The notes: generated by a model not told the origin, from the sequence alone. 64,000 nucleotides of DNA from Chlamydiales bacterium (GCA_051647685.1 JBOFEG010000021.1:1949-65948); one strand, 5' to 3'. Numbered from the stretch's first letter, positions 457 through 23,929 are shown. Made by a program: numbers and translations.

Positions 457-1566
457 TTAGATAGAATGAATAGTATCTAAGTTAAGTGACTCTTGTCGGC
501 CATAGTAAGATAAACCTGAGGATTGAATAATTGCACCCCCAAGGCATATATTCCCGGAGTAGAAAACGATCGCTTGTCCTGGGGTGATAGCGCGTTGTGG
601 CCTTTTAAAGGTAACTTTCAAAGAGTTAGTAGATTCAAGAGTAACTGTACAAGCCTGCTGAAGTTGTCGATAGCGAATTTTAGCTGTGCAATGAAGAGGA
701 AAAAGAGAGGAGACTAGCGTTGATCGAATGGCTATTAAAGAGTCGGCATATAAGGCCGGATGATCCCTACCTTGTGCTACAAAAATTGTATTAGTATCTA
801 TTTCCTTTTTTACTACGAACCAAGCTTCGCCAGGTCCTCCAATACCTAGATTTTTTCTCTGCCCGAGTGTATAAAAATAAGCGCCTGTATGAGTTCCGAG
901 TCTCTGGCCTTCAATCGAATAAATAGCACCACTTTTTATTGGAATATACTGTTGTACAAAATGATAGAAATTCCTCTTTCCAATAAAACAGATTCCAGTG
1001 CTGTCTTTTTTAGAGTGAACTGGCAAGCCATGATCTTTCGCAATTTTTCTTACAGATTCTTTAGTGTATTTCCCTAGTGGAAATAACACAGATTGCATTT
1101 GATTCTTTTGTAATGGATATAGGAAATAGGTTTGATCTTTATTAGCGTCCACTGCTCGGCATAGCTGTAGGTTTGTAATTTGTGCATAGTGACCTGTCGC
1201 TAAGTGGCTCGCTCCTGTTCGCAAAACTTTCTGAAGAAAAATGTTAAATTTAATTTTTTCATTACATAAAATGTCTGGATTAGGCGTGAGGCCAAGCTTC
1301 AGATCCCGAATGAACAATGTGAAGACTTCCTCAAAATATTCTTTTGTAAAATTTGTAGTATAATAGGAAATATTAAGGTGATCGCAAACCCGGATGACAT
1401 CATCCATATCTCTTTGAGAGTGACATTTGCCATTTATATCTGTCTCTTCCCAGTTTTTCATATACATGCCGGTAACACTATAGCCCTGTTGTTTCAAAAG
1501 AAGAGCCGTAACCGATGAATCGACACCTCCGGACATACCAACAATAATAGAAGGGGAATATGACAT
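457..1566 (-). CDS. mnmA: tRNA-specific 2-thiouridylase MnmA
   Basis: 369-aa ORF with an N-terminal PP-loop (MSGGVDSSV). Length and layout are typical of MnmA, including the GICFIG segment. Confidence 0.93.
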   Translation of the reverse strand: MSYSPSIIVGMSGGVDSSVTALLLKQQGYSVTGMYMKNWEETDINGKCHSQRDMDDVIRVCDHLNISYYTTNFTKEYFEEVFTLFIRDLKLGLTPNPDILCNEKIKFNIFLQKVLRTGASHLATGHYAQITNLQLCRAVDANKDQTYFLYPLQKNQMQSVLFPLGKYTKESVRKIAKDHGLPVHSKKDSTGICFIGKRNFYHFVQQYIPIKSGAIYSIEGQRLGTHTGAYFYTLGQRKNLGIGGPGEAWFVVKKEIDTNTIFVAQGRDHPALYADSLIAIRSTLVSSLFPLHCTAKIRYRQLQQACTVTLESTNSLKVTFKRPQRAITPGQAIVFYSGNICLGGAIIQSSGLSYYGRQESLNLDTIHSI

Positions 1567-1643
1567 AATTAATGGTTAGTAAATTTTATCTTATTAATTA
1601 TATCCATATTCTATAAATATTACAATTAGGAATCCCAATATAA

Positions 1644-2279
1644 ATGTATCAAATAATAGATAGAGATCTAAACGCAGTAGGGAGTCTAATGAATCCTGTC
1701 ATAAAATTTGTTACAAAAATGCATTTGAGACATTCTATAGATAATATTCTAATAAATAGATTTTTTTTATCGACAATCCAGAATTTTATAGATGAGAAAG
1801 ATGCAAGATATCGATATGTAGAACAAATACCTCATACAATAGCGGCTTTAATTTATTACGTGGGTCTCTTTTGTTTTTCCTCTATGATCGCTATTTTTAA
1901 ATTAGAAGGTCGGAACTCGTATAAAAAGCTCTCTGTTACCTTTGCAACACAAGTAACTTTTGCTATTTCTTCCTTATACTTATCAATAATTGGGAGTCTT
2001 TCTCCTGATCTTGCTATGAATATTACTTTATTCTGCGGGAAAAAAATTATAGAAATTTTTGATAGAGATGAAGAAGAAACAAAAAAAATATGTGATTTTA
2101 TTAAAAATTTTTGGTCATCCTATCGGATTCGTATACAAAATTGGATGTTATCCACTCAAAAGCTAACGCCTCAAAACGGATTCAATTATCAAATGCGTGT
2201 AATGGATATACATAGAAGAGTAGAAAATCTATCAGATATAAAAAATTTATTCCAGTATGCTCTGCAGTTAAATGGCTAA
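1644..2279 (+). CDS. hypothetical membrane protein (two adjacent hydrophobic segments)
   Basis: 211-aa ORF. Hydrophobic stretches TIAALIYYVGLFCFSSMIAIF and VTFATQVTFAISSLYLSIIGSL are separated by a short polar loop. I recognise no enzymatic motif. Confidence 0.5.
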   Translation: MYQIIDRDLNAVGSLMNPVIKFVTKMHLRHSIDNILINRFFLSTIQNFIDEKDARYRYVEQIPHTIAALIYYVGLFCFSSMIAIFKLEGRNSYKKLSVTFATQVTFAISSLYLSIIGSLSPDLAMNITLFCGKKIIEIFDRDEEETKKICDFIKNFWSSYRIRIQNWMLSTQKLTPQNGFNYQMRVMDIHRRVENLSDIKNLFQYALQLNG

Positions 2280-3092
2280 TGAAAGAATTTCGGTTAATTT
2301 ATTTTGATATACAGATTCTTTAATGATAAGATGATGCGCAGCATTTTCCAGCAGAATTAATGTGAGTTGATTTGGTAGAGCTAATTTCTGGAGCGTTACG
2401 CTTGCTTTGTATGGAATTAATGCGTCTGCTTTACTGTGAAATACATAGATAGGGCATAAGACCTTTTGAATCCATAAGTCGGTACGAAGCTGGTATTTTA
2501 ATAGAAAAGTAATCAGGAATTTTGGGAAGTAGGGTTTCAATCCACTCGCTACTTCAGAGAACCGACAATAAGGCGACTCTAAAATTAGCATTTTAGGGGA
2601 GTGTTTACTAGCAAGATATGTAGCAATGCCAGTTCCAAGTGATGTCCCATAAAAAATCGTATCTTTTAAAAGATAGCGTTCTGAGAGAAATTCATACACT
2701 TTTTCTGCATCGTCAAGTATAACTTGTTCGTTATTGATAGTTCCCATGCTTTTTCCAAATCCTCGGTAATCAAATATTAAGCAGTCATAGCCTCTCTCTG
2801 TAAAATCTTTTATTACGCTACCCCATGGTTTAGCAAGATTTCCCCCTCTTCCATGAAAATAAAGTACAACGCCTTTCTTACCTTCGGAAAAAAATAACAT
2901 GGAATGTAAATGTACATTGGGTGCTACTGGAATGAAATGCTCTTCAAAAGCAGTCTCTGAAGAAAAAACATAATCTTTAGAAAGGGGAATTGATTGAAAA
3001 ATTTCTCTCTCTTGAAATAAATATAAGTAACTTGGGAAAACAATTAAATAAGTAATTAAAAATGAACTGAAAAGTTTTTTTATAGAACGCAT
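2268..3092 (-). CDS. alpha/beta-fold hydrolase
   Basis: 274-aa ORF with an N-terminal hydrophobic segment, an HGRGGN oxyanion-type motif and a GTSLGTG nucleophile elbow (GxSxG). Confidence 0.75.
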   Translation of the reverse strand: MRSIKKLFSSFLITYLIVFPSYLYLFQEREIFQSIPLSKDYVFSSETAFEEHFIPVAPNVHLHSMLFFSEGKKGVVLYFHGRGGNLAKPWGSVIKDFTERGYDCLIFDYRGFGKSMGTINNEQVILDDAEKVYEFLSERYLLKDTIFYGTSLGTGIATYLASKHSPKMLILESPYCRFSEVASGLKPYFPKFLITFLLKYQLRTDLWIQKVLCPIYVFHSKADALIPYKASVTLQKLALPNQLTLILLENAAHHLIIKESVYQNKLTEILSLAI

Positions 3093-3179
3093 ATACTATT
3101 TTACCGAATATTTCTCTCTATAAAATAAGTGTTTCTTTTTATAATGTTTAATTCAATCTTTTTTAAAAAATAATTTCAT

Positions 3180-3818
3180 ATGATATTGATAATCGATAAT
3201 TATGATAGTTTTACATTTAACTTGTATCAGATCTGCGCTACGATTTATCCCAATATTAAAATTGTACGAAATGATTGTATAGACTTATATACAATCAATC
3301 CAAATCGATATAGAGGGATTATAATTTCTCCAGGACCTGGATCGCCGGAACAATCTGGATTGTGCATCCCTATAGTACAAAAGTTTTCAGGGAGTATTCC
3401 TATTTTAGGTATATGTCTTGGACATCAAATTATCGCAAAAGCATTCGGTGGCACTGTACAGGCCGCACATACGATTATGCATGGTAAAAGATCTATACTA
3501 TGGCACAGTCAGATAGAGTTATTTGCTGGTGTAATAAATCCTTTGCATGTTGGAAGGTATCATTCTTTAATGGTATCTTTAGAAGATCTTCCTCCCATTT
3601 TTAGGATAGATGCTATGTATTCGAATCACTCAATTATGGCCATTCGACATAAGATACATCTAACATATGGACTGCAATTTCATCCAGAATCCTATTTATC
3701 AGAAGATGGGAGTGTAATTATTCGTAACTTCTTAAATATTTGCGGTGTATCGAATTTTCCCAGTAATATTTTTGATATCGATAGATTGATTGAATATAAG
3801 TGCATCGACCAAAACTAA
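3180..3818 (+). CDS. glutamine amidotransferase, anthranilate/aminodeoxychorismate synthase component II (TrpG/PabA type)
   Basis: MILIIDNYDSFTFNLYQ N-terminus, catalytic Cys in GICLGHQ, and His/Glu in QFHPES. The roughly 25-aa C-terminal tail overlaps the 3' end of the convergent aroC by 87 nt. Confidence 0.85.
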   Translation: MILIIDNYDSFTFNLYQICATIYPNIKIVRNDCIDLYTINPNRYRGIIISPGPGSPEQSGLCIPIVQKFSGSIPILGICLGHQIIAKAFGGTVQAAHTIMHGKRSILWHSQIELFAGVINPLHVGRYHSLMVSLEDLPPIFRIDAMYSNHSIMAIRHKIHLTYGLQFHPESYLSEDGSVIIRNFLNICGVSNFPSNIFDIDRLIEYKCIDQN

Positions 3819-4871
3819 AGCTGCCATAGCCTCTACGACGGGTACTGCTCGAATGGCAACGCAAGGATCATGACGAGCAGTAGCTGTGTATTGTAAAACA
3901 CTGGGAATTTTTTCAATAAAGTCTACTGTACGTTGAGGCTTTTGAATGCTAGAAGTAGGTTTGAAGGGCATTCTGCAATAGATAGGCATACCATTTGCTA
4001 TTCCACCAAGTGTACCGCCACTATGGTTTGTTATGAAGGAAATATTTTCTGAATCATCAATGTAAAATTCATCATTACTTTGAGAACCTAATTTTTGTGC
4101 AGAGAGAAATCCATCTCCAATTTCAAATCCTTTGCATGCTGGAATAGACAACATAGCTTTTGCTAAATTTGCTTCTAACTTTTCATATACTGGATCTCCA
4201 AGTCCAATGGGTAGAGGAGTAGTAAATAATTCGACTATGCCCCCTATAGAGTCTCCCAATGACTTTACGGAATGTAGTAACTTAATAATCATTTGCTCTG
4301 TATTTGGGCATGCACAAAAAATGGGACTATCTATTATTTGCTGACGTACATCAGTAATGTTATGGTCGACATAAGATGGAGATGCTATATCACCGACAGA
4401 TCGGATATATGCTATCAGATCAATACCGCATAAATGCAAAATTTTTTTTGCAATGGCTCCGGCAGCAACTCTACAAACAGTTTCTCTGGCTGATGCTCTT
4501 CCACCGCCATAGGGATCAAAAATAGTATATTTTCTCCAATAGGTAAAACTTGCGTGTCCAGGACGTAAAAGTTTTCGTATAGGGGTATAATCATCTGCAT
4601 TATTATCTCTGTTAAAGATAATAATAGAGATAGGTGCTCCTGTTGTTTTTCCTTCAAATACTCCTGAGTAAATATGAGCAATATCTAGTTCTTGTCTAGA
4701 CGTAGTATGTATATTTCTACCCGGCTTTCTATAAGATAGAACATCGGTGATTTCTTTTTCAGATAACTCCAGTCCTGCTGGACAACCATCAATGACTACT
4801 CCATAAGCTTTTCCATGAGACTCACCCCATGTCGTTATGCGAAAATGAATTCCAAAACTATTGGTGGCCAT
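3732..4871 (-). CDS. aroC: chorismate synthase
   Basis: 379 aa with the N-terminus FRITTWGESHGKAYGVVIDGCPAG and GGRASARET-type motifs. Confidence 0.95.
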   Translation of the reverse strand: MATNSFGIHFRITTWGESHGKAYGVVIDGCPAGLELSEKEITDVLSYRKPGRNIHTTSRQELDIAHIYSGVFEGKTTGAPISIIIFNRDNNADDYTPIRKLLRPGHASFTYWRKYTIFDPYGGGRASARETVCRVAAGAIAKKILHLCGIDLIAYIRSVGDIASPSYVDHNITDVRQQIIDSPIFCACPNTEQMIIKLLHSVKSLGDSIGGIVELFTTPLPIGLGDPVYEKLEANLAKAMLSIPACKGFEIGDGFLSAQKLGSQSNDEFYIDDSENISFITNHSGGTLGGIANGMPIYCRMPFKPTSSIQKPQRTVDFIEKIPSVLQYTATARHDPCVAIRAVPVVEAMAALVLVDALIFNQSIDIKNITGKIRYTANI

Positions 4872-5402
4872 AATACCCAGGATTTATATCAGCATAAAAA
4901 CTACTAAGAATATCAAGAATTTCCTCAAAGGTCTTGTCGTCTACGACTATTGTACGAGATGGGATCTTTTTCATGTATTTCAAACGATCTTCATAAAAAT
5001 GATTACAATGAGAAATATCTTTTAATTTGGACAAAAAAGCAGGTGGATCCAAGAGAAGGCGTGAGTAGAGTGTTTTTTTTGCAATTTCAAGATAGATAAA
5101 CTCTCCTAGCTTCTGTAAGAAACTGACAACTTTTGCATTACAAATAGCCCCCCCCCTAGAGCAATAACTGTATTCGATTGATTCTGTAGAGAGAAAATTG
5201 CTTCAGATTCTAATATTCTAAATTTTTTTTCTCCAAACTTTTGGTAAATCTCTCGACAAGAATAGGGTGATTTGAATCGTTTTTGATATAATTTTTCTAT
5301 TATCCTATCCGTATCGATAAAGGAAAGGGACAAATTAACAGCAAGTTTTTGTCCAATAGTAGTTTTTCCACTTCTCGGCAATCCAAATAAAATAATATTC
5401 AT
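4858..5402 (-). pseudogene. aroK: shikimate kinase interrupted by a frameshift inside a G9 (C9 on + strand) tract
   Basis: ORF 5106..5402 carries Walker A (GLPRSGKTTIG) and ends shortly after ...VIALGGG. The adjacent frame reads on from the same tract as (GG)AICNAKVVSFLQKLGEFIYLEIAKKTLYSRL...DPPAFL... and joins track ORF 4858..5052. The two pieces together give about 181 aa, the normal size for a shikimate kinase. Confidence 0.85.
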
Positions 5403-6682
5403 GGCAAAATTCTCAAATCAGCTCCTAAGTTCTGCAAATCTTGCACAAAACTACTATATGTTTTCTTGATGGGATCTATTTCATGTATGATAGATGACCC
5501 AGCAGCACCGAGCGCTGCAACAGCCAGCGATAATATAACTCGATGATCTTTATGTCCGTATAACTCCGATGATCCTTGAAGATTAGATGATTCAATAATC
5601 ATTCCATCATCAGTTTCCCAAATTATCGCTCCCATTTTGCGCAGCTCCTTTGTCATTGTAGAGATGCGATTAGATTCTTTATGTTTTGCTATACTGCCAT
5701 TCATAAGACGTGTAGTTCCTTTTGCAAAACAACCCACTACTGCCAAAATAGTAATAGCATCAATACAATCATTGACATGAATATCCATGCCCTGCAGAAA
5801 GGAAGTTTTTTTAACTCGAATAGAGTTGTTTCTAAGTTCTAAATTAGCGCCCATTCTTTGTAGAATAGTAACTACTTCTTTATCGCCTTGTACATCACTA
5901 AAATCCACATTATATAAAGTTATTTCAGAGCCTGTGATTAAAGCTGCTACTAGTGGATAAGCTGCGGAACTAAAATCACCAGGGATATTTATATGAAAAC
6001 CTGGATAGGAAATCTTGCCTCTTATTTTATAATGGGAATAACCCGTTCGAAGATATGGAATCTTTAGCTTTTGTAGCCAATATAGAGTCATATCAATCCA
6101 AGGGCGTTCCCCGGGATTCTTTACAAATATATCTGTTATACCTTCTATGAAAGCAGCAGCAATAAGTAGAGCAGAGACAGGTTGAGAATCTTCTCCACAT
6201 ACGTGGATTGTACCTGAAACGGGAGGGCCTTTAATAATAATAGGTGCTCCTCCATGGGCCTGCGTTGCGTAGGCTAAAACTCTTAATTGCCGTAATCCAT
6301 CAATTAGAGGTCTTATGGGACGACTATTGCGAATGGAATAATCACCAGTAATAATAGTATGACCATTCGATAATCCAGCTATTGCCCCGATTAACCGAAA
6401 TACAAGACCGGAATTACCAGAATCAATGATATTTTCTGCGATTGGTAGATTACCGTCATTGCCCTCTATCATTAAATAATTGCAATGCTTCTTAATCCGA
6501 GTATGAAATTGGCGTGCTGCTGAAATCATAGCCTCTGTGTCGGGAGAATGCAAATAGTTTACAATCACCGATGTTCCTCTACCCATCATACCAAATATAA
6601 TGGCCCGAAGTGTATGGGATTTAGAGGGAGGTACGGTAATATTTCCGTTAAGAATACTTGGATTAATTAGTAGTTTTTTCAT
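5399..6682 (-). CDS. aroA: 3-phosphoshikimate 1-carboxyvinyltransferase (EPSP synthase)
   Basis: 427 aa with the PPSKSHTLRAIIFG motif. It overlaps aroK by 4 nt and aroB by about 20 nt, consistent with operon coupling. Confidence 0.95.
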   Translation of the reverse strand: MKKLLINPSILNGNITVPPSKSHTLRAIIFGMMGRGTSVIVNYLHSPDTEAMISAARQFHTRIKKHCNYLMIEGNDGNLPIAENIIDSGNSGLVFRLIGAIAGLSNGHTIITGDYSIRNSRPIRPLIDGLRQLRVLAYATQAHGGAPIIIKGPPVSGTIHVCGEDSQPVSALLIAAAFIEGITDIFVKNPGERPWIDMTLYWLQKLKIPYLRTGYSHYKIRGKISYPGFHINIPGDFSSAAYPLVAALITGSEITLYNVDFSDVQGDKEVVTILQRMGANLELRNNSIRVKKTSFLQGMDIHVNDCIDAITILAVVGCFAKGTTRLMNGSIAKHKESNRISTMTKELRKMGAIIWETDDGMIIESSNLQGSSELYGHKDHRVILSLAVAALGAAGSSIIHEIDPIKKTYSSFVQDLQNLGADLRILP

Positions 6683-7799
6683 GGGTTCTATCGGAAAAGT
6701 TGCTGATAAGCCAATGAATTACTTGGCTCCAATAAACCTCATCTACTAAATGTAGGTAACTTGGATGGTTGGATACTGTACCAATAGCTGTGAGTAAAAC
6801 ACAATGAGGAACTGAAGAAATAGTTTTTTTATCTCGCAAAGTAGCGGCAAGTATATCTGAAGAACTTATATGAGATGAAATTCTAAGATCGAAGGAATAA
6901 TTTTTTATAAGAGAATAAATTCGCATAAAATCTGAGTAGGATAGTCTTTTCATATGATAGCTGAGATAAGCCTCACCCAGAATTCCGATTGCTACCGCTT
7001 GACCGTGAGAAATAGTATATTTCTCACACACTTCAATCGCATGTGCAAGGGTATGCCCAAAGTTGAGTATATGGCGAATGCCTTGATCATAGAGATCTAG
7101 CTGTACAATGTTCTGTTTTATCTCTACACTACGTTTAATAATAAGAAGGAGAGAGTCTATGGATTCTTCTTCCCAATTCGGAATGTTTTTTTCTAATAAT
7201 TCAAATAGCGTAGCATCATAGATACATCCATATTTGATAATTTCTGCAAATCCGGAAATTAGTTCTTGAGATGACAAAGTCTTTAAAAACCAGATGTCTA
7301 TGTAAACTGTTTTCGGGAAATAAAAAGTTCCAAGGAGATTTTTCCCAAGCGATGTATTAATAGCTGTTTTCCCGCCAATGCTAGCATCAATCATAGAGAG
7401 CAATGAAGTTGGAATGAGATGTAGCTGTACGCCCCGAAGATAGGTAGATGCAAGGAAACCTGCTAAATCTGTTATAGTACCACCGCCAAACGCCACAATG
7501 GAAGTATACCGATCAATATGCCTTTGGAACAGTTCATCTTCCAATTTCTCTTTGACGTGTCTAGATTTTAGTGATTCTCCGGATGGGAGAATGTATACAA
7601 AAATGTGAGAAGTCACTTGAACCAGTTTATGAATAAAATTTGTATAGCATCGATACACATTACTATCGGTAATTAGGACAATAGAAGATGAATTGTCTAT
7701 AATTTGCTGCCATAAACTACTATTTGCAAATAGATTTTTTCCAATATAGAGATGTGTTGTATGTTGTTTTTCTATAACCTGTAGAGTAATATGTTCCAT
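6663..7799 (-). CDS. aroB: 3-dehydroquinate synthase
   Basis: GGGTITDLAGF nucleotide-binding motif and GHTLAHAIE metal-binding motif. The track ORF starts at 7859, but the internal ATG at 7799 (MEHITLQVIEK...) fits the family N-terminus and leaves a 58-bp divergent intergenic region. Confidence 0.9.
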   Translation of the reverse strand: MEHITLQVIEKQHTTHLYIGKNLFANSSLWQQIIDNSSSIVLITDSNVYRCYTNFIHKLVQVTSHIFVYILPSGESLKSRHVKEKLEDELFQRHIDRYTSIVAFGGGTITDLAGFLASTYLRGVQLHLIPTSLLSMIDASIGGKTAINTSLGKNLLGTFYFPKTVYIDIWFLKTLSSQELISGFAEIIKYGCIYDATLFELLEKNIPNWEEESIDSLLLIIKRSVEIKQNIVQLDLYDQGIRHILNFGHTLAHAIEVCEKYTISHGQAVAIGILGEAYLSYHMKRLSYSDFMRIYSLIKNYSFDLRISSHISSSDILAATLRDKKTISSVPHCVLLTAIGTVSNHPSYLHLVDEVYWSQVIHWLISNFSDRTHEKTTN

Positions 7800-7857
7800 A
7801 TATAGCAAATATAAATGGCAATATAATAAGTTCTCGAAGTGAATTTGTTCTAGTCTC

Positions 7858-9339
7858 ATGTTAATTTTAGTATTAAATAGATCCAGTTATTCTGAAAATA
7901 TAGCTTTAATCGAACAAACAAAAGCAAAAGTAGAAGGTTATGAATTATGCATAGATCTGCTTGAAGAAATTTCTATTTTACAAATAAAAAAGATCCGAAA
8001 TATAGCGCAACTGCCAATAATTTTTACTTGGAAGAATTCTGTATATAATCAATCCATAATTCATGGTTTAGCGACATTACAACCCGATTTTTTTGATTTT
8101 GATTACACCGCTCCGATTTCCATAATTGAAGATGTGCTATCAGTGTCTCCCAATACAAAAATAATTGTATCAATACACGATTATATTCAAACTCCCAATG
8201 ACTTAACCTACCTTCTCAACCGAGTAAGATGTCTTCCTGCCCATATATATAAAATCGCCACTTTTGCAAGAAGTGTAACTGATGGACTCCGCATGATGCA
8301 GTTTATGATAGAATATGGGGGTCGATATAGATTGATCGGTATCTGTATGGGGAATTTAGGACAATTAACTCGTATAGCAGCTCCGATTATTGGGAGTGTC
8401 ATGCACTATTGTTATAGTGGAAGAGCAAGCGCTCCTGGGCAATTTTCTATAGAGGAATTACTAGAAGTATATTTTTATAAAAGAATAAATCGTAATACGC
8501 AAATTCTTGCTTTACTTGGCAATCCAGTTTGCTATAGTCCATCGCATTATACGCATAATTCGATCTTTTTTACCTTCCAATTGCCAGTGGTATATATAAA
8601 ATTACAATTAGAATTAGAAGAACTGGCTACTTTTTGCACATCGATTAGAAGTCTTCCCTTTTTAGGATGTAGCGTTACTATGCCTTTCAAAAAAGCTATC
8701 ATTCCCTTTTTGGGTAGCATTTCTGATATGGTGAAAATCACTCAGTCTGTGAATACAATCCACATTAAAAGTAATAGGTTACTTGGGTATAATTTTGATG
8801 CTTCAGGTGCTCTAGATGCTATAGAAGAAACCATTTCTATATCTAATCGACATATAGTAATTCTGGGAGGGGGCGGAACAGCAAAGTCTATTGCTGTTGA
8901 GGCTAAAAACCGAGGAGCGACGGTTACCATCCTGAATCGATCTTTAGAAAAGATCACTAATTTTGCCAGTGAATTACATATTAGATGTGGAACTTTAGAT
9001 GATTTTGAAGAAATAGCACAGGAGGGATATGATATTGTTTGCAATGCTACTTGTCTTGGAATGGGGGGAAGAGTAGAAACACCTATTCCATCCCATAAAT
9101 TACTACCTGAAAGATATGTCATGGATGTAGTTTTCTCGGCAGGTCATACATCTTTTACTTCGGCAGCAGCGGAATTACATTGCTCTATTATATATGGAAA
9201 AAGTATGTTTGTAAAACAGGCGATCTATCAAATGCGTACCTGGATTTGCGATACACTTGATTCGATAACAGTAGAAGAAATCATGGCAAATCGTATACAG
9301 GAATACACAGATAAATCAGTTAGAGTTATCAATCTATAA
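7858..9339 (+). CDS. aroDE: bifunctional 3-dehydroquinate dehydratase / shikimate 5-dehydrogenase (fused AroD-AroE)
   Basis: 493 aa. The C-terminal half has the SVTMPFK shikimate-dehydrogenase motif and a GGGGTAKSIAVEA Rossmann loop. The N-terminal ~220 aa is the size of a type I DHQase. As I recall, this fusion is known in Chlamydia. Confidence 0.88.
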   Translation: MLILVLNRSSYSENIALIEQTKAKVEGYELCIDLLEEISILQIKKIRNIAQLPIIFTWKNSVYNQSIIHGLATLQPDFFDFDYTAPISIIEDVLSVSPNTKIIVSIHDYIQTPNDLTYLLNRVRCLPAHIYKIATFARSVTDGLRMMQFMIEYGGRYRLIGICMGNLGQLTRIAAPIIGSVMHYCYSGRASAPGQFSIEELLEVYFYKRINRNTQILALLGNPVCYSPSHYTHNSIFFTFQLPVVYIKLQLELEELATFCTSIRSLPFLGCSVTMPFKKAIIPFLGSISDMVKITQSVNTIHIKSNRLLGYNFDASGALDAIEETISISNRHIVILGGGGTAKSIAVEAKNRGATVTILNRSLEKITNFASELHIRCGTLDDFEEIAQEGYDIVCNATCLGMGGRVETPIPSHKLLPERYVMDVVFSAGHTSFTSAAAELHCSIIYGKSMFVKQAIYQMRTWICDTLDSITVEEIMANRIQEYTDKSVRVINL

Positions 9340-9393
9340 ATTTGAAGTTATTGAAATTTTTTTGTGAATTACCATAAATTCTAAAATTAAAAA

Positions 9394-9801
9394 TCAACTT
9401 TCATTGTTTGCTATCTTCTTTTTCATAATCCATTTTTGACTAAAACTTCCTTTTTCCTTTATTTTGTCTTGGTGTACTATATCCATTTGTTGCAAGGATG
9501 TCCCCATCTCAATACAAAAAGCATTCAAAACTTCAACAATATCAGCCATTTCTTCAAGACATGGATTTTCTAAAAATTCGTCCACTTCCTCATGCAGTTT
9601 TTTCTTTAAAAAATATAAAAACTCTCTAGGGGTTGCTTCATGAAAGTCTGCGATAGAAGATTCTTTTTGCATTATTTCAGGAATACGATCTCGAACAAGT
9701 TTTTTTACATAATTTCTTTGGGATTTATTGTTCATATTGGAAAAACTAGAAGTAATAGGAAGAACTATCAATAACATTAAAAATGTGAAGAAAGTATTCA
9801 T
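9394..9801 (-). CDS. MazG-like all-alpha NTP pyrophosphohydrolase family protein
   Basis: KLVRDRIPEIM ... LHEEVDEFLE ... EEMADIVEVLNAF pattern typical of MazG/PRA-PH-like house-cleaning pyrophosphatases. The true start may be the internal ATG at 9735 (MNNKSQRNYVKKLVRD). Confidence 0.65.
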   Translation of the reverse strand: MNTFFTFLMLLIVLPITSSFSNMNNKSQRNYVKKLVRDRIPEIMQKESSIADFHEATPREFLYFLKKKLHEEVDEFLENPCLEEMADIVEVLNAFCIEMGTSLQQMDIVHQDKIKEKGSFSQKWIMKKKIANNES

Positions 9802-9804
9802 AAA

Positions 9805-10404
9805 TTACAAATTGATTTTTTTACGCACAATAGTGTTTAACCATCGACAAGTTGTAGAGGTGTCTAATTTCTGAGAAAGATGAATCCACTGATTTAATAT
9901 GACAAAACCTTTAAGGTGGAAAAAAAGCGTATCTTTATTCATATAAGTAAAAGTTCTATACCCGTCTTGTGATGTCCCTATTCCTTCTTTAAAAGAAAAT
10001 GCAAGAATACCTTCTGGCTTAAGGGCTTTTCGAAATTTTTCTATAACTATACTAATGGATTGAAGAGGCACATGTACTAAGGAAGCAGAAGCCCAAATAC
10101 CATCAAATTCTTCTAAAAACTCCATTTCCTCAAAAAACCCTTGTATAGCTGGGATTCTTAATTTTTCTTGAACATATTTAACCATGTTTTCTGCAGCATC
10201 AAATCCGAGAACTTCATATTGCTTCTTTTTAAATGCCAATAAATCCCGGCCTGGTCCACACCCAGCGTCAAGAATTTTAGATTTTTTAGGAAGATACTGT
10301 AAGAAATTTCTTCGAACCTGTTCCATATCTATAGAAAACGTTTTCTCAATATAATTGAAAATGTTCTTATTATAATATTCGATGGTTCTGTCATCAGTTC
10401 TCAT
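9805..10404 (-). CDS. class I SAM-dependent methyltransferase
   Basis: 199 aa with SAM-binding motif I, ILDAGCGPGRD, followed by an acidic residue at the end of strand 2 (LGFDAAE). Confidence 0.8.
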   Translation of the reverse strand: MRTDDRTIEYYNKNIFNYIEKTFSIDMEQVRRNFLQYLPKKSKILDAGCGPGRDLLAFKKKQYEVLGFDAAENMVKYVQEKLRIPAIQGFFEEMEFLEEFDGIWASASLVHVPLQSISIVIEKFRKALKPEGILAFSFKEGIGTSQDGYRTFTYMNKDTLFFHLKGFVILNQWIHLSQKLDTSTTCRWLNTIVRKKINL

Positions 10405-10759
10405 TATTAATGAACTCTTACCTAGATCTTTGTTCTTAAAGTCTCAAAGATATCGCATATGAATTTTACTAACAAGAATTGGTTATTATTTTTTTGAATG
10501 TAAAAAATTTGTCAATTTTTTGCTTCTTGCATTAGTTAAGAAGCGTAAGAAAAACATTAGTGTTTAATAATCAGAAATGGATAGCGATAATCTGATAAAT
10601 CAATATCCTTCTAAACAAAAAATAAGTTTATAAAAATTCAGCTCAATATGTAAAATATTTAATATGAATACATGGCGTTATGTACCAAGTTTATATTTTA
10701 GAAAGTTAATGCAGGTTAATTCAAAACTTTTAAAGTTGTCGATTTTTATATTCTTTCAT

Positions 10760-11444
10760 TTAGGTATCACAAATATTGTATTTGGGGTTGAACCCATAGT
10801 TATTTTTGATCCCAATATGAAGAGGAAGTGAGTTATATGTTAATGGAAATTTAATTAAGTTATCCTCAAAAATGATAAATCGGTGTTGATCTAAGTCTTC
10901 TATTTTCCTAGGCATTCCAAATTTATTAATATATTCGGATGTTGCAAATAAACTTAAACGCCAGCGCATAAGGGGAATTTATATTAAAAATGGTTCATTT
11001 TCCATATATGGTCTAATTGCGGCGTCAAATTCTCCTGCCTGTAAATCAAGTGGTGCATTGCTTCCTACAATTTCAAATTGAAGGTTTGGATAGACTTCGA
11101 TGAATTGATCTAAAAAGTGAGTAATCCAAGTAGAAATTAAAGCATGTGTTGATGTAAGGCGGAAGATACCTTTTATTTCTTCTTGGTCTTCTAAAAAAGC
11201 TTCTTCGATTGTTTTTAATTCAAAAAGAATGGGTCTAATTTTTTCTAACAAATAAGACCCAAAAGGAAGTTGGAATAAGACCTTGAGAAGATCGGATAAT
11301 AAGAGGTCTTTTTAAAAAAATTTCCAGTGATCGAAGTTGTCGACTAGCTGAGGATTTATCCATTTTTAAAAAATTAGCTGCATCGGAAAGATTTCGATAA
11401 CTAGCAATATAATAGAAAGTGTGTAACTGATCTAAGTTAATCAT
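10760..11444 (-). pseudogene. LysR-family transcriptional regulator, disrupted (one frameshift, one in-frame TAA, probable C-terminal truncation)
   Basis: Three consecutive track ORFs make up this gene. 11235..11444 is the HTH domain (LHTFYYIASYRNLSDAANFLKMDKSSASRQLRSLE). 10979..11251 and 10760..10969 are substrate-binding-domain pieces. The first junction reads through as ...GLIPTSFGSYLLEKIRPIL... if one T is removed near 11255. The second junction is an in-frame TAA at 10979..10981. Confidence 0.85.
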
Positions 11445-11479
11445 TGAAGAATGTAATCCATGTAGCTAACATAATAATA

Positions 11480-12643
11480 TTATAAATAATTTGTCATTCT
11501 TTTTAACGCATTTATTAAATTGTATATGTCTTCTTCCGTATTTTGATGTCCAATACTTAAACGAACTGTTCCATTAGGCAATGTCTTTAAAAATTTATGG
11601 ATTAGAGGAGCACAATGAATACCAGCTCGTGAACAAATATTATATTTTTTATCCAATTCGAACGCAACCTGACTTGAAATCATACCTTTAATATTAAAAG
11701 AGATAATGGGAACCTTACAAGCTATTATATTTGACCCATATAATGTAACATTATCTAACAGGGATAATTCCTGCCATATTTTTTCTGTATGTTTCAAAGC
11801 TTTTTTTTAATCTTGAGGAAAGTTTTTTCAATAATGTAATTTAATGACCCAAGAAGTCCTATGATACCGAGTGCATTAACTGTTCCTGCTTCAAATTTAA
11901 AAGGCATTAATTTGGGGTGCTCAAGTGAGATAGAGTTATTTCCTGGACTTCCTCCTTCTACATAAGAGCTAAGAATAGATGGATCCTTAATATAAAGAAA
12001 ACCTACACCAGTGGGGCCCAATAAAGTTTTATGACCTGTTCCTGCTAAAAAATCAACAGGATAATTTTTCCAGTCAATTTCTTCATACCCAAGAGTTTGG
12101 GTGGAATCAAAGAGAATTTTTATTTTATGAGTTTGGCAATAAGCAAAAGCTTCTCTAAAATCTGCTTTTACCCCTATAACATTTGAGGCACCAGTTGCAA
12201 TAAATAGAGATGTATTATCTTGAGCTCTTTTTTTGTATAAATTCTAAATCTACTATTCCTTGTTCATTAATGGGAATAACATCATATTTTATTCTTTTTT
12301 CTTGCTTCAATCGATCTAAAGGCCGCAATATAGCATTATGACTGTAACGACAAATAAGAACATGGTCATTTGGTTTCAGAAAATTTTTGATAACAATATT
12401 TAAACTATGCGTAGCATTCATTGTAAAGGAAATATGTGTAGTTTCTTGGATTTTTAGTAATTTTGCAAGTTTTTCGCGTGTTTCTTCAACCCACTGTTCA
12501 GCCTTTTGTGAGAGAAAATAGCTTCCTCTTCCTGGACTCACACCAAATTGTGTAAGGTAAGTTTTTATGCGTTCAAGAACTTCTACAGGTTTTGGAAATG
12601 AAGTAGATGCATGATCAAAATAATGCATAAGGAACCTTTCCAA
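11480..12643 (-). pseudogene. class V aminotransferase / cysteine desulfurase-like protein interrupted by two homopolymer frameshifts
   Basis: The N-terminal piece is 12215..12643 (MHYFDHASTSFPKP...). The middle frame, about 11794..12212, reads DNTSLFIATGASNVIG...FLAGTGHKTLLGPTGVGFLYIK and contains the PLP lysine in GHK. The C-terminal piece is 11480..11797 (SRAGIHCAPL, active-site Cys). The junctions fall in T7 (12228-12234) and T8 (11801-11808) on the + strand. Confidence 0.85.
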
Positions 12644-13143
12644 TCACTGCTGCAAGTTTTTCTCGACTCTGAGGAGAACGTTTCAGGTCAGTATAGGATT
12701 GCCAATCTGAAAGATCATCAATTTTAAGTTGTTCACAGATTAAGGTACGAAGGAAATGGGGAGGAACCTTATGTGGGTAAGTTGGATAATATACCATTTC
12801 ATTGGAAGAATTTTCAAAAAATAAATAAGTTCCATATTTACAATAATAATTAAAAAGACTGGCATATTCTTTTAGTCCAGTTCCTGGAAACTGTTGGGCA
12901 ATTCTAGAATGGATACAAATAGATGTGGGGAGGCAATGCAAGTGAAAATGTTCACAATGAATTTCAGTCGAAGAAGCTGCATGGCAGGATCCGGCTTTCC
13001 CATGTTCATAAAATTGGATAAGTGTCTGGTAGCAACACAAAGTTATTAGTTTCAAGTAGTACCATTCCTGCAATGGGTGAACAGAACAGGCAATTGCTGG
13101 ATGGAGTCTTCCCTTTATAAAAAGGGTCTGTATATGTTATCAC
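12615..13143 (-). pseudogene. HIT-like (histidine-triad motif) protein, apparently frameshifted
   Basis: Track ORF 12615..13073 contains HFHLHCLP (an HxHxHxx motif). Upstream in another frame I read AAGGAGG-N7-GTG (start at 13143), then ITYTDPFYKGKTPSSNCLFCSPIAGMVLLETNNFVLLPDTYPIL and a stop. That is a HIT/GalT-type CxxC N-terminus. The frames switch near 13005-13020. Confidence 0.45.
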
Positions 13144-13317
13144 AAATAACCTCCTTTAATTAGTAAATAAGAACAAAAAGTTATAATCAGAAAAAAAGTT
13201 GTTGTTACTTCGGATATTCCCGTTTTCTCCTTTAAAAAATAGTGAGCAGCATAACAATTAAGAAGAGCGACTGCATTTAGAATTGGCCATGCAATAAAGC
13301 TCATATCGCGAGTAATA

Positions 13318-13938
13318 CTAAAAAAAAGCTGATTGAGAAAAAAATGCTAAGCTCCCACGTAAAAATAAACCTTCTAGGGCTCTTATATTTAGACTTTGAA
13401 AATTGATAATAGGATTTTTCCTATATGGTATTCCTATTACAATTACCATTAATACGGTTCGCCAAAAAAGGACTCCTACCATAAATTTAGAAAAATCCTG
13501 CCACGTTCGAGTATAATCAGGTACATGAAAATAAGAATTAATTAATGCTTGAAAAACAAGGCTGATCATAAGAATATATGATACTTTTTTGTATAAGCTT
13601 CCATTTCTAAATGTAACGAGAGCTATTGGAAGAAAAGATAATGTAGTTAAGCTTATGAACAAGTAATCTTGGAAACAAAACTTGTGTGTTAAAAAGAAAA
13701 GAACAACAGGAATAAATAGATCGCATGTTTTACCAGATAACATCACATTGCGTATATTCATTTCGCGAAGAGATTTAGAAGCAGCATAAGCTGCAAACTG
13801 GGCTCCTATTCCACTGAAAATAATTCCAGGTTTAGTTAAAAAATTTAAAATTGATGAATCAAAATTATAAGAAAAGACACAGTTAATGATCGAAAAAAAT
13901 AGAGGAAATAAGGAATTTAATAAGATTCCCAATAACAA
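13318..13938 (-). CDS. multi-pass membrane protein, probably a decayed DMT/EamA-type transporter
   Basis: 206-aa hydrophobic ORF with a TTG start directly after an open but ATG-less upstream frame. Downstream (13150-13317), other frames continue with hydrophobic text: SFIAWPILNAVALL and NCYAAHYFLKEKTGISEVTTTFFLIITFCSYLLIKGG. This resembles an EamA C-terminus and implies at least one frameshift. Confidence 0.5.
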   Translation of the reverse strand: MLLGILLNSLFPLFFSIINCVFSYNFDSSILNFLTKPGIIFSGIGAQFAAYAASKSLREMNIRNVMLSGKTCDLFIPVVLFFLTHKFCFQDYLFISLTTLSFLPIALVTFRNGSLYKKVSYILMISLVFQALINSYFHVPDYTRTWQDFSKFMVGVLFWRTVLMVIVIGIPYRKNPIINFQSLNIRALEGLFLRGSLAFFSQSAFF

Positions 13939-14334
13939 TCTATATTGTTTGTCCGAAAAAAATGTCGATCGAAAATATTCAATGCAATCCGAGAAATAGC
14001 ACAGAAAAGGGAAGAAGAAACTGTAATTAGTAACACGGCTTGCCCTTACTTGTTTAGTTTTCTATGATGCAACTCATGTTTCGTTTTTTTGCAACGAGAA
14101 AATGAAAAATATATTTTGACTTAAGTCACCTTGGAAAGATTTATTCAGGTTCCACAAGATCAAACTGAGGGTCAAAAGTATCTAAAAGTAGAGTTTATTT
14201 ATATCGATCAGGTTGAGATTTATGGGCATCGGAGATTCAGTGGCTCGCATGACATCTATAAAGAGATTTATATAGTAGAGTTATTTTTATTTTAGGTTTT
14301 GATAAGATTAAATTAATATTAAGGAATTATCATA

Positions 14335-15026
14335 ATGATTAAATATCTAAGATTTATACTTTTCTTTTTGCCATCTGTAATTTTTTCTGAATATTATAGT
14401 CAATATGGTCAGGACCAATTTGTAAACGAAAATTTTTTCAAAAATCGTACAAAGGGAATTTTTGTTGATATTGGTGCTCATAATGGTATTTCCTTGAGTA
14501 ATACCTATTTTTTTGAAAAAGAACTCGATTGGACAGGAATTTGCATAGAGCCCATCCCACATGTATTCAAACAATTGCAAAAAAATAGAAATTGTTTATG
14601 CATATGTAGCTGCATCACAACGGAACATAATACTATACAACATTTCTTACAGATTTCAGGTTATCCTGAAATGTTATCAGGTCTAGTTGATAAATTTGAT
14701 AAAAGACATCTAGATCGCATTACCCATGAAATCAAGGAATCTGGGGGGCTTGCAAAGTCATTGATGTTGCTTGCTATAATCTCAATAGGATTTTAGAAAA
14801 AGCTAGAATTACTCATGTGCATTTTCTCAGTATCGATACAGAAGGGGGAGAATTTGAAATTCTACAAAATTTTGATTTCTCTAAATGTCAAGTTGATGTG
14901 ATCACAGTAGAAGATAATTACCAAACGCATTCTTTTATTCCTTTTTTAGAAAGCAGAGGCTTTGCATTTGTTACAGCGCTTGGGCAAGACCTAATATTTA
15001 TTAATAAAAAATTAAATTTAGAATAA
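14335..15026 (+). pseudogene. FkbM-family methyltransferase interrupted by a frameshift in a G6 tract
   Basis: ORF 14335..14796 has FVDIGAHNGISLSNTYFF...ICIEPIP, the FkbM SAM-binding region. From the G6 run (14743-14748) the -1 frame reads ACKVIDVACYNLNRILEKARITHVHFLSIDTEGGEFEIL and joins track ORF 14817..15026. A G7 tract would give one continuous ~229-aa protein. Confidence 0.8.
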
Positions 15027-17494: not shown

Positions 17495-17920
17495 TTAAAG
17501 TTTTTCTTTTTTATCGATGATTTCCTCAAATGGAACTAAACTCGCATCTGGATGATTAATTCCCTCACAATAAGTGTTTTCTATGTCCCAGTGATCTTTA
17601 GATTCTAAAATTGCAGACCAAAAGGGGTAGCTCCGGCATTGCGCAGGTCTAGAAGTATAAACACTACACTTGCGATTTTTTAAAAAAATGCAATCAAAAG
17701 AAGAAGTGTCCTCAAGAAGAGAAATGCGCAATCCTATCCGTCGGGTGTATTTTCGCAAAAATGCTTCTACAGAAATTTGAAAATGTTGACTAAACCTTTC
17801 TAGATCTTCCTGGTTAAGCCACACGAATCCGGGAGTTCCGGAACAGCAGTCGCCACATCCAGTGCATTTGAAGCGCAATCCTTCTTTATACCAGGGTAAT
17901 TTACAGTCTGAATTGTTCAT
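17495..17920 (-). CDS. YkgJ/UPF0153-family cysteine-cluster protein
   Basis: CxxCxxCC motif (FKCTGCGDCCSG). The track ORF extends to 18256, but its first 112 aa overlap the metallophosphoesterase gene. The ATG at 17920 (MNNSDCKLPWY) is the plausible start. Confidence 0.7.
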   Translation of the reverse strand: MNNSDCKLPWYKEGLRFKCTGCGDCCSGTPGFVWLNQEDLERFSQHFQISVEAFLRKYTRRIGLRISLLEDTSSFDCIFLKNRKCSVYTSRPAQCRSYPFWSAILESKDHWDIENTYCEGINHPDASLVPFEEIIDKKEKL

Positions 17921-18785
17921 GAGAGAGTAGGATAAAAGAGCCGTTTTGTTGATTAATTCCATAAATATAAATCTGTAACATTTCTGGATGTAACTCCAAA
18001 ATATGGAAAGACCCATGTCTTTGATGGGAGAAACTTCCGCTATCCATAATGATTGGATAATCTGATTCTCGCAAGTCTGCAAGACAGCGTCTATGAGTAT
18101 GTCCGTGTAAATAGCATATAATAGAGGAAAATCGCTTAATAAGTTCTTGGAAAGCCGTGGCACGGCGCATAATGCGTCTATTATGCTCTTGAGTAAACAA
18201 TGGAAAATGATTTGCGATAATAACTCGAGAATCTTTTGGAAGTTCTTGTAACACACATTCGAGAGAATTCTCTAACTCCTCGCTAAAGATACCTGTCGAA
18301 TCCAGTAGATTAGCTGCTTTGGTTGTGTCGAGGCCAATTAGGTAGAAATTATACACCAAATGTTCTACAGTAATGCGATGGTCTTCCAAATTCCACTGTG
18401 GTAGAAAATCGGAGAATTGCTTAGGGAAATATTGATAAAAAATTCTATCATTGCAAGTTTGTTTAGTGTAGTGATCGTGGTTACCTGGAATCAAATAAGT
18501 CATCATATTAGCAGATTGAAGCTCATCGACGAGTTCTTTCGCCAGCATATACTCTTTCTCGAGCGACGTTGTAGTCATATCTCCCGTAATAACAATATGA
18601 GAGACTTTTTCATTGGACAAGAATTCTGGCAATAAAAAAGCATTTTTAGGATTGTATAGATTACGTCGGAAAAAAATAAGGTTAAGATTCCCAAACCATC
18701 GCTTAGAAAAAAACATTTTCGGAGACAGAGAAATTTTCGAAAAATGCAAGTCTGAAATATGAGCGATACGTAATGGATATCCCAA
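17901..18785 (-). CDS. calcineurin-like metallophosphoesterase
   Basis: 294 aa with the motifs ISDLHF, ITGDMT, GNHD and LHGHTH. Confidence 0.85.
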   Translation of the reverse strand: MGYPLRIAHISDLHFSKISLSPKMFFSKRWFGNLNLIFFRRNLYNPKNAFLLPEFLSNEKVSHIVITGDMTTTSLEKEYMLAKELVDELQSANMMTYLIPGNHDHYTKQTCNDRIFYQYFPKQFSDFLPQWNLEDHRITVEHLVYNFYLIGLDTTKAANLLDSTGIFSEELENSLECVLQELPKDSRVIIANHFPLFTQEHNRRIMRRATAFQELIKRFSSIICYLHGHTHRRCLADLRESDYPIIMDSGSFSHQRHGSFHILELHPEMLQIYIYGINQQNGSFILLSHEQFRL

Positions 18786-21467: not shown

Positions 21468-21540
21468 GGGGGTTTAGCTTAGTTGGTAGAGCATCTGGTT
21501 TGCAACCAGAGGGTCAGGAGTTCGAATCTCCTAGCCTCCA
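21468..21540 (+). tRNA. tRNA-Ala (anticodon UGC)
   Basis: Cloverleaf folded by hand. The acceptor GGGGGTT pairs with AGCCTCC, including the G3:U70 Ala identity pair. The D arm is GCTT/GAGC and the anticodon stem TCTGG/CCAGA has loop TTTGCAA. The T arm is AGGAG-TTCGAAT-CTCCT and the discriminator is A. No CCA is encoded. Confidence 0.95.
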
Positions 21541-21552
21541 TATAATTCGTCT

Positions 21553-21627
21553 GCGGTTATAGCTCAGTTGGTTTAGAGCGCGACACTGATAATGTCGAGG
21601 TCCCAAGTTCAAGTCTTGGTAACCGCA
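21553..21627 (+). tRNA. tRNA-Ile (anticodon GAU)
   Basis: Acceptor GCGGTTA/TAACCGC and D arm GCTC/GAGC. The anticodon stem CGACA/TGTCG has loop CTGATAA. The T arm is CCAAG-TTCAAGT-CTTGG and the discriminator is A. No CCA is encoded. Confidence 0.95.
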
Positions 21628-22783: not shown

Positions 22784-23929
22784 TTAAATCTCACCCGACA
22801 AGATTTTATTTCGATATGTATGCATGTATTCCATCATAAAAAAAAGATTATGAATTGAGGTTAATTGGAGCGCTGTGAGCTCCTTGGCTTTGAATAGATG
22901 ATGTATATAGGCTACAGAGTAATGTGTACAAGTATGGCACTGGCATCCGAGCTCTATCGGAATGAAAGATTGAGAATAGTTTGATTTAGTTATATTGAGT
23001 TGGCCCTCTTTTGTTAAAGCAATACCGTGGCGAGCAAGTTTTGTCGGATAAGAACTATCAAAAGTATCAATGCCGAGAGGTATAGCTCCACGTAGAGAGG
23101 CTAAGTCACCTATGCCTAGCAAGTGATTGGGTTTATCTTTAGGTAACCGAGGCATAGTATATTCCAAAAGATTCATCATTTCTAGTTTAGATTTTCCGAG
23201 GCTACCGCCAATAGCAAAGCCGTCAAAAGGCAGAGAAGTTAAGAATTCACAACTCCGAGCTCGTAAATTCGAATCTATACCACCATGAATGACTGCATAC
23301 ATAAACTGATTGTTTCGATTTTGTAAGTGAATATCTAAAGATCTCTTTTCCCATCGGTGGGTCCTCTCTAAAGAATCTTCCAGTTTCGCTTTTTGAATGT
23401 GATAAGGGGGTAACTCATCCAAAGGAATGATGATATCAGATCCAAAATCCTTTTGAGCTAATACAGAACTTTCGGGAGTGAGCAATACTTTCTCACCATC
23501 TCGGTACGATCGAAATAGGACACCATCTTCTGACACCTTAATTACGTGCCCGGTATTCCATTTGCTTTTTATACACTTCAATTCACCTGCAATAGATCCG
23601 TAATTTAAACTAAAGACCTGGAATCCACCGGAATCCGTAATAATTGGAAGAGACCTATTTATAAATTTATGAATGCCACCGGCTTCTCGAATAGTTTGTG
23701 CGCCCGGTTGTAATAATAAATGGTAGGTATTACAGAACATCAACTGCAGACCGATACCTGAGACCAAATGGTTATCTAAAGATTTGATAGTACCATTCGT
23801 ACCTACTGCTACAAACCCTGGCGTATCGATTATTCCATGAGACGTGTGAATTTTCCCGACTCTCGCTTGAGATCGAGTGGATTCATAGATACATTCAAAA
23901 AATGGAGGTTTCAAGTTCTTTGTGTGCAA
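22784..23929 (-). CDS. tgt: tRNA-guanine transglycosylase (queuine tRNA-ribosyltransferase)
   Basis: ARVGKIHTSHGIIDTPGFVAVGT, the catalytic region TDSGGFQVFSL and the zinc site CQCHTCTHYSVAYIHHL. Confidence 0.95.
   Translation of the reverse strand: MHTKNLKPPFFECIYESTRSQARVGKIHTSHGIIDTPGFVAVGTNGTIKSLDNHLVSGIGLQLMFCNTYHLLLQPGAQTIREAGGIHKFINRSLPIITDSGGFQVFSLNYGSIAGELKCIKSKWNTGHVIKVSEDGVLFRSYRDGEKVLLTPESSVLAQKDFGSDIIIPLDELPPYHIQKAKLEDSLERTHRWEKRSLDIHLQNRNNQFMYAVIHGGIDSNLRARSCEFLTSLPFDGFAIGGSLGKSKLEMMNLLEYTMPRLPKDKPNHLLGIGDLASLRGAIPLGIDTFDSSYPTKLARHGIALTKEGQLNITKSNYSQSFIPIELGCQCHTCTHYSVAYIHHLFKAKELTALQLTSIHNLFFMMEYMHTYRNKILSGEI

Follow-up and report, generated by a model that had tools for sequence, protein, structure and literature searches.

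The shikimate kinase gene, aroK, is split by a run of nine guanines in a stretch of 64,000 nucleotides (nt) from a Chlamydiales bacterium (GCA_051647685.1 JBOFEG010000021.1:1949-65948). The whole of this stretch is called the window hereafter, and positions are counted within it unless another contig is named. The two closest relatives of the strain have one base more in this run, and the rest of the aro cluster is intact. With a probability of about 0.5, we read it as a real one-base lesion or polymorphism, from ten G to nine (G10 to G9), without adaptive role; the G9 state is known from the assembly consensus.

The guanine tract and the split aroK frame

Reading of the sequence confirmed that nine C, CCCCCCCCC, stand on the plus strand at 5148-5156, giving G9 on the coding minus strand and splitting aroK. 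Ahead of the tract, the 0 frame reads MNIILFGLPRSGKTT...SNTVIALGGG (it begins MNIIL), after which come 13 out-of-frame residues, LFVMQKLSVSYRS, and then a stop. The resulting open reading frame (ORF) of 98 amino acids (aa) combines 85 native residues with these 13. Past the tract, the -1 frame (equivalently +2) continues as AICNAKVVSFLQKLGEFIYLEI...GYYGHQ* and is free of stops down to 4858, the normal C-terminus that the sequence-only reading had described, and the 3' end of aroK overlaps the start of aroC (4871) by 14 nt. The elements of the split gene are the following:

5148..5156, minus strand: G9 homopolymer (C9 on the plus strand), encoding the Gly-Gly-Gly loop; the two closest relatives have one more base here (G10).
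5106..5402, minus strand: 5' part of aroK, with Walker A GLPRSGKT, DTD and GGG; the 98-aa ORF.
4858..5147, minus strand: 3' part of aroK in the -1 frame (AICNAK...GYYGHQ*), open throughout; its stop overlaps the aroC start.

As given, the sequence has no single uninterrupted aroK frame and G9 yields a truncated 98-aa protein, while the insertion of one G in the tract produces a protein of 181 aa. This repaired (G10) product shows full-length similarity to the shikimate kinase family (AroK/AroL, Pfam SKI PF01202; PRK00625). Its residues 1-158 match the NCBIfam profile PRK00625, a shikimate kinase model of chlamydial type (E = 1.9e-27) and its residues 1-163 match the Aquifex shikimate kinase structure 2pt5 (PDB), both alignments spanning the tract unbroken. 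The catalytic and binding motifs were all found, namely Walker A GLPRSGKT (GxxxxGK[TS]), DTD (DxD) and the GGG loop, and are kept in 14 close relatives. The tract itself encodes the shikimate-binding Gly-Gly-Gly loop, a motif invariant in 14 of 14 aligned close homologues and conserved in both solved structures that were aligned. Downstream of the tract, neither the reading of the frame nor the alignment with relatives revealed a stop or a further indel in aroK, as had been stated for this half of the gene.

It had also been proposed that a tract of either ten or seven G would restore the 181-aa kinase. This stands for G10, which gives 181 aa and is the state of the relatives. G7 was rejected, since the frame is regained at the price of one Gly of the invariant loop. 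Because G7 removes one Gly and G13 would insert an extra one, G10 is the only single-step repair that preserves the loop, and among single-step length changes it alone is predicted to give back a normal enzyme.

The window has a G+C content of 34.9%, and the tract is its longest G/C homopolymer. Only one other C/G run of at least 8 nt occurs in the whole window, a C8 at 52367-52374. Three overlapping G8 matches were observed, against a mean of 0.26 expected from shuffles of the window.

Relatives, selection and the aro operon

Two independent assemblies of the same species as the window (about 98-99% nt identity), here loci L002 and L003, carry an intact gene. The closest orthologue in a protein search, P0001, is intact, with 181 aa and 97% identity to the repaired aroK. 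It sits on Logan contig SRR13494436_225 (L002), has G10 in the tract, and belongs to a region 98.8% identical to window positions 903-7086 over 6185 nt, in which the tract is the single gap. Contig 13625 of ERR13998652 (L003) is 98.1% identical over 9256 nt and also has G10, in an intact aroK of 182 aa. The repaired gene matches both of these orthologues in length and sequence register.

More distant intact kinases (172-181 aa, 58-77% aa identity) all possess the Gly-Gly-Gly motif, and at loci L004-L010, which fall in this range of identity, the loop codons are GGT GGA GGC, GGC GGT GGT or GGA GGA GGG. In the species of the window, all three loop codons are GGG and are followed by GCT, forming the run of ten G. 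Because relatives at 58-77% identity write the motif with mixed codons, the G10 tract is young and species-specific, having arisen by synonymous change to the rarest Gly codon. GGG represents 14% of the Gly codons in the genes of the window, and none of the 18 other tri-Gly motifs in its intact ORFs is written GGG GGG GGG. Window counts give a chance of about 0.3% per tri-Gly site for a triple GGG; extrapolating to hundreds of such sites per genome, the presence of one such tract by chance would not be surprising.

In the collections searched, the only close relatives of the species come from assemblies of public sequencing runs. No additional strain with the tract and its flanks turned up in two metagenome scans, and a scan of genome contigs found only an unrelated Lachnospiraceae kinase at 35% identity. 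Exact look-ups in the protein collection gave no match to the aroC or the 98-aa aroK fragment of the window, and searching text for the relatives' three run accessions brought up no paper. Chlamydial-type profile matches and named homologues place the window in the Chlamydiota. Homologues of its TGT gene occur in metagenome-assembled genomes (MAGs) of Simkaniaceae (72% identity) and of Protochlamydia, Parachlamydiales and Rhabdochlamydiaceae (67-68%), and those of a TPR-like gene discussed below in Chlamydiae and Rhabdochlamydiaceae MAGs (34-36%).

The claim that aroK is the sole broken step of the aro cluster was upheld by profile matches, which find the other genes full length:

3732..4871, minus strand: aroC, chorismate synthase, intact; starts 14 nt inside the aroK 3' end.
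5399..6682, minus strand: aroA, EPSP synthase, intact; stop codon overlapping the start of aroK (ATGA).
6663..7859, minus strand: aroB, 3-dehydroquinate synthase, intact.
7858..9339, plus strand: aroD/aroE fusion (dehydroquinase and shikimate dehydrogenase), intact; divergent from the aroB-A-K-C operon.

Profile scores exceed their cut-offs for aroC (429 vs 212 bits), aroA (351 vs 287) and aroB (354 vs 305), and aroD/E covers positions 1-472 of a bifunctional profile of 477 positions. The overlapping stop/start junctions are as they had been described and occur at aroB/aroA, aroA/aroK and aroK/aroC.

Compared with its conspecifics, the repaired aroK has a ratio of nonsynonymous to synonymous substitution rates (dN/dS) of 0.26-0.40, with 0.30-0.40 for aroC and 0.38 for aroB. 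Changes on the window branch were polarised by the outgroup majority. In aroK, four nonsynonymous and two synonymous changes were counted; the four replacements (S90A, E128K, D132H and L159F) all lie downstream of the tract, and E128K only has unanimous outgroup support. For the nine other genes, the counts over 3030 codons are 18 nonsynonymous and 23 synonymous; aroA, aroB and aroC taken together have three nonsynonymous and seven synonymous changes. The replacement excess in aroK has a Poisson P of about 0.02-0.05, the contrast between nonsynonymous and synonymous counts being not significant, and it provides a weak hint of a real lesion, not a proof. A test for long neutral evolution of aroK gave an unremarkable pairwise dN/dS and, on the window branch, polarised counts too low for a decision. 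The other aro genes combine a low rate with a synonymous excess; they remain under purifying selection, and the pathway was in use for most of the window branch. Any inactivation of aroK is therefore recent or intermittent.

Several other features of the cluster deserve mention. The 3' end of aroC (3732-3818, minus strand) overlaps a convergent GATase/Peptidase_C26 gene (3180-3818, plus strand) by 87 nt. This tail-to-tail overlap also measures 87 nt in L002-L005, 66 nt in L006 and L007 and 57 nt in L008-L010, and is unusually long and conserved. In the 3' part of aroD/E (8350-9247), differences from L003 climb from about 0-3 to 8-13 per 150 nt toward the 3' end, by the boundary of an island described below. 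The gene has 47 amino-acid differences from L003, with at most 10 in every other gene compared, and this rise in divergence suggests a recombination or insertion boundary. Two in-frame indels of a 3-nt repeat unit separate the window from L003 (window 5257 and 9019; L003 10146 and 6381): a TCT duplication, which adds a Ser to the aroK of L003, and a CCT unit indel in aroD/E. Slippage at short repeats appears to be a common mutational mode in the species.

A recent contraction or a miscalled run

Runs of ten G are hot spots of replication slippage. According to the reading that we favour, slipped-strand mispairing would have shortened the young, species-specific G10 to G9, and nine would be the prevailing tract length in the sequenced strain or population. 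Translation would end 13 codons past the tract, releasing a 98-aa product devoid of the LID and adenine-binding half and presumably inactive. Ribosomes would halt about 235 nt before the translationally coupled start of aroC, which may weaken expression of the operon tail. The contraction would be recent and reversible at a high rate, G9 and G10 cells would probably coexist, and the tract would be an incidental mutational hot spot in a gene-losing lineage rather than an evolved switch. This reading draws support from the G10 of both conspecifics as ancestral state, from the mixed loop codons of the more distant relatives, from the lack of further damage downstream of the tract, and from precedent: coding poly-G tracts that flip between G9 and G10 inside populations are documented for Chlamydia trachomatis CT166 (PMC4514472) and for pmpG genes (PMC6740158). 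Very recent inactivation and slipped-strand variation, which the sequence-only reading had listed separately, both fit the data and are mechanistically the same event; no evidence was obtained for a selected switch. The 5' poly(A) of inlA in Listeria monocytogenes, whose frameshift frequency is about 1000-fold above that of point mutation (PMC2831843), is likewise a hypermutable coding homopolymer with reversible inactivation. It differs from the aroK tract in its base, A, in its place, the 5' end of a virulence gene, and in that its frameshift recurred independently in several strains.

The strongest rival, possible at well short of even odds, is a miscalled G10: the true aroK would be intact, and one G would have been lost in base-calling, consensus building or polishing. 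Some observations agree with a miscall, weigh against a real contraction, or do both. Both closest relatives have G10, which would also be the starting state of a contraction, and the shortfall is of a single base in the longest G/C run of the window, where consensus errors concentrate. A lone lesion in a conserved gene, amid intact aro neighbours under selection, is also what an artefact would be expected to look like. The contigs of L002 and L003 pass the tract unbroken and give no sign of strong length mixing there, while G9/G10 heterogeneity within a population is something that we infer. Lastly, the hint drawn from substitutions rests on six events.

Against a miscall stands the general quality of the assembly. 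In the aligned regions, the lengths of A/T runs of at least 6 nt agree between the window and L002 in 22 of 22 comparisons, and between the window and L003 in 62 of 63 (84 of 85 overall, the sole exception being intergenic). Runs of 6-10 nt are in frame, including all those of 9-10 nt within ORFs. About 25 housekeeping genes are full length against Pfam profiles, among them FtsH, PNPase, LigA, Ffh, HflX, RF1, MDH and citrate synthase, as well as LptF/G, TilS, L13, S9 and TrmD. Because A/T homopolymers as long as 10 nt keep the frame and agree with those of the relatives, an assembly broadly prone to homopolymer errors can be excluded on these comparisons, and the error process would have to be specific to G/C runs, with which the data would still be compatible. 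In the window, seven of the eight G6/C6 runs are unproblematic, yet three of the ten G/C runs of at least 6 nt lie at frame breaks, and G/C runs are over-represented at such breaks. Two other candidate frame breaks were discarded. The ORFs 23895-24584 and 22784-23929, which meet at an A8, are two genes according to Pfam (Vut_1 and TGT), and 17495-18256 and 17901-18785 correspond to two overlapping genes in relatives (Metallophos and CxxCxxCC).

A second argument against a miscall comes from the other broken genes, aroK not being the only one in the window. The gene for a TPR-like secreted or membrane protein (51822-53646, plus strand), with a signal peptide and a transmembrane segment and about 610 aa once reconstructed, is a pseudogene with three lesions: two +1 insertions, one at 51912 and one in the C8 at 52367-52374, and a 16-nt deletion near 52750. 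The C8 site reads CCTCGTC in the conspecific L011, and none of the three sites is damaged in six relatives (P0130-P0135). Neither the 16-nt deletion nor the +1 insertions represent under-called homopolymers, and gene decay in the window is therefore real. A gene for an FkbM-type methyltransferase (Pfam Methyltransf_21; 14335-15023, plus strand) is split into two frames at a G6 (14743-14748). L003 has one more base at this site, no homopolymer and an intact gene of 224 aa, and several substitutions relative to L003 created the G run. This gene counts among the decayed ones of the lineage, but like the aroK break, its lesion is a one-base shortfall in a G run and as such also speaks for a miscall.

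Between aroD/E and the FkbM gene, a 5.1-kb stretch (9248-14382) is absent from L003. Within it, a class-V aminotransferase (11483-12643) falls into three fragments that join at A7 and A8 runs, a LysR regulator (10982-11465) is in two fragments, and a SAM methyltransferase (9805-10404) is intact; the upstream open frames at 12618-14061 gave no family match. By its content, the stretch looks like a decaying acquired island. Three of the decayed genes of the window are intact in the closest relatives, and the 5.1-kb stretch has no close comparator. That amino-acid changes specific to the lineage are slightly in excess downstream of the aroK tract also argues, to a lesser degree, for a lesion that is real.

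Elsewhere in the window, a 273-aa ORF (41223-42044, minus strand) has partial matches to UPF0004 (25-98 of 98) and Radical_SAM (1-111 of 166). It is possibly a shortened paralogue of the MiaB/RimO-like gene at 33377-34654, which is intact. Two adjacent tRNA genes are present at 21468-21627 (plus strand; Rfam RF00005, 71 and 73 bits).

Possible switching or slippage, and what a broken aroK would mean

Contingency loci typically comprise surface, virulence or restriction-modification genes. For aroK, an evolved phase-variable switch of this kind, in which selection would keep the G tract in order to toggle shikimate kinase and chorismate synthesis ON and OFF, is improbable. The tract is long enough for hypermutability, and the difference in length between strains does toggle the frame, G10 being in frame and G9 out, as in a length-toggled hypermutable coding repeat. 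It is moreover built of the rarest Gly codon, every other tri-Gly motif of the window being interrupted, and poly-G phase variation is known in Chlamydia (PMC4514472, PMC6740158). On the other hand, the tract is limited to one species, its origin by chance is plausible, and just three genomes can be compared, of which two are ON and one is OFF (G10, G10 and G9), with no repeated switching seen among them. The gene, a cytoplasmic biosynthetic housekeeping kinase within the aroB-A-K-C operon, also falls outside the classes usual for such loci.

In Chlamydia trachomatis, the cytotoxin gene CT166 has a coding poly-G that is 'ON' at G9 and 'OFF' at G10, with heterogeneity observed at 130-470x read coverage (PMC4514472). 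CT166 shares with aroK the phylum, a coding poly-G of 9-10, a frame toggled by one base and a presumed slipped-strand mispairing. Heterogeneity was measured at the level of reads for CT166, whereas aroK is known from the consensus of three strains; and CT166 is a putative virulence effector with a 5' tract, whereas aroK encodes a core biosynthetic enzyme with a mid-gene tract in a catalytic motif. The pmpG family of Chlamydia pneumoniae, C. abortus, C. psittaci and C. felis provides poly-G/poly-C hot spots of frameshifting (PMC6740158). Here too, frameshifts fall at G/C homopolymers whose length varies between strains, and frameshifted copies lack further damage, but the tracts of 8-24 nt belong to surface autotransporters, with many paralogues, strains and independent events, against one locus, one event and three genomes for aroK. 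The window itself encodes a 544-aa protein with an autotransporter beta-domain (37779-39413, minus strand), a class with phase-variable poly-G tracts in Chlamydia, and no long G/C run was found in this gene.

A more particular form of the switch, very improbable in our view, would be a selected metabolic one. In a symbiotic or environmental chlamydia, slipped-strand mispairing within the catalytic Gly-Gly-Gly loop would turn chorismate synthesis ON and OFF, so that some subpopulations would make aromatic precursors and others scavenge them, according to the host; polarity on aroC might add to the effect.

It is just as improbable that G9 is real and that enough full-length kinase is made by slippage of the polymerase or the ribosome on the G run. 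The exact ...ALGGGAICN... sequence of the 181-aa protein would return either with one G added to the transcript or with a ribosomal slip of -1 on G_GGG_GGG, and selection still acts on the remainder of the pathway. There are also precedents. In Blochmannia and Buchnera, transcriptional slippage corrects frameshifts that lie in poly(A)/(T) tracts (PMC3017870, cited in PMC5009743), and in a G-run mutant of the herpesvirus thymidine kinase, low-level ribosomal frameshifting suffices for reactivation from latency (PMC5009743).

The analogy with insect endosymbionts, made in the sequence-only reading, nevertheless transfers poorly. As in aroK, the Blochmannia and Buchnera cases involve a single homopolymer indel in a gene otherwise intact and apparently needed, in an intracellular bacterium (PMC3017870). 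Their tracts are of A/T and their frameshifts are conserved across populations or species, whereas the aroK tract is of G/C and its frameshifted state is not conserved, L002 and L003 being in frame with G10 and the distant relatives lacking the tract. In the Escherichia coli and Buchnera transcriptomes, 100% of homopolymer insertions occurred in A/T runs and none in G/C runs, and the authors concluded that G and C runs are not slippage-prone (PMC5574713). At the level of translation, a systematic E. coli assay found GGN A-site codons to be poor -1 shifters and G_GG.G_GG.N to rank with the poorest -1 motifs, with 0.018% for G_GG.G_GG.U without a stimulator (PMC4066793). The aroK run, made of G, belongs to neither slippage-prone class (an A/T run of at least 9, or X_XXZ_ZZN with Z = A or U). 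No stimulatory RNA structure was found downstream, the 121 nt from the tract onward folding no better than shuffles (z = -0.24), and programmed frameshifting was rejected for lack of such a fold. Herpes simplex virus thymidine kinase resembles aroK in its one-G indel within the G run of a small kinase gene (PMC5009743), and in both cases trace frameshifted translation could supply some enzyme. In the virus, however, the ribosomes are eukaryotic, the run is a G7 and leakiness was demonstrated, while the bacterial data imply a very low efficiency (PMC4066793). A trace leakiness of the G9 allele is conceivable.

The interpretation thus narrows to a one-base contraction or a miscall, slippage rescue and an evolved switch being unlikely. 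In either case, the class of mechanism, a homopolymer indel, is already well known. If the shortfall is an artefact, aroK should be annotated as intact, which matters for curation only.

If G9 is true, the strain would be unable to phosphorylate shikimate while keeping, and still selecting for, the other steps of the pathway. For this little-sampled lineage of chlamydiae, metabolic reconstructions would be affected, for example as to the supply of chorismate, folate or quinone precursors and the dependence on the host. Synonymous drift would have created a mutational liability inside a catalytic motif. The locus would then offer a clean snapshot of the first step in the loss of a pathway, or of a reversible loss, at a recently arisen tract.

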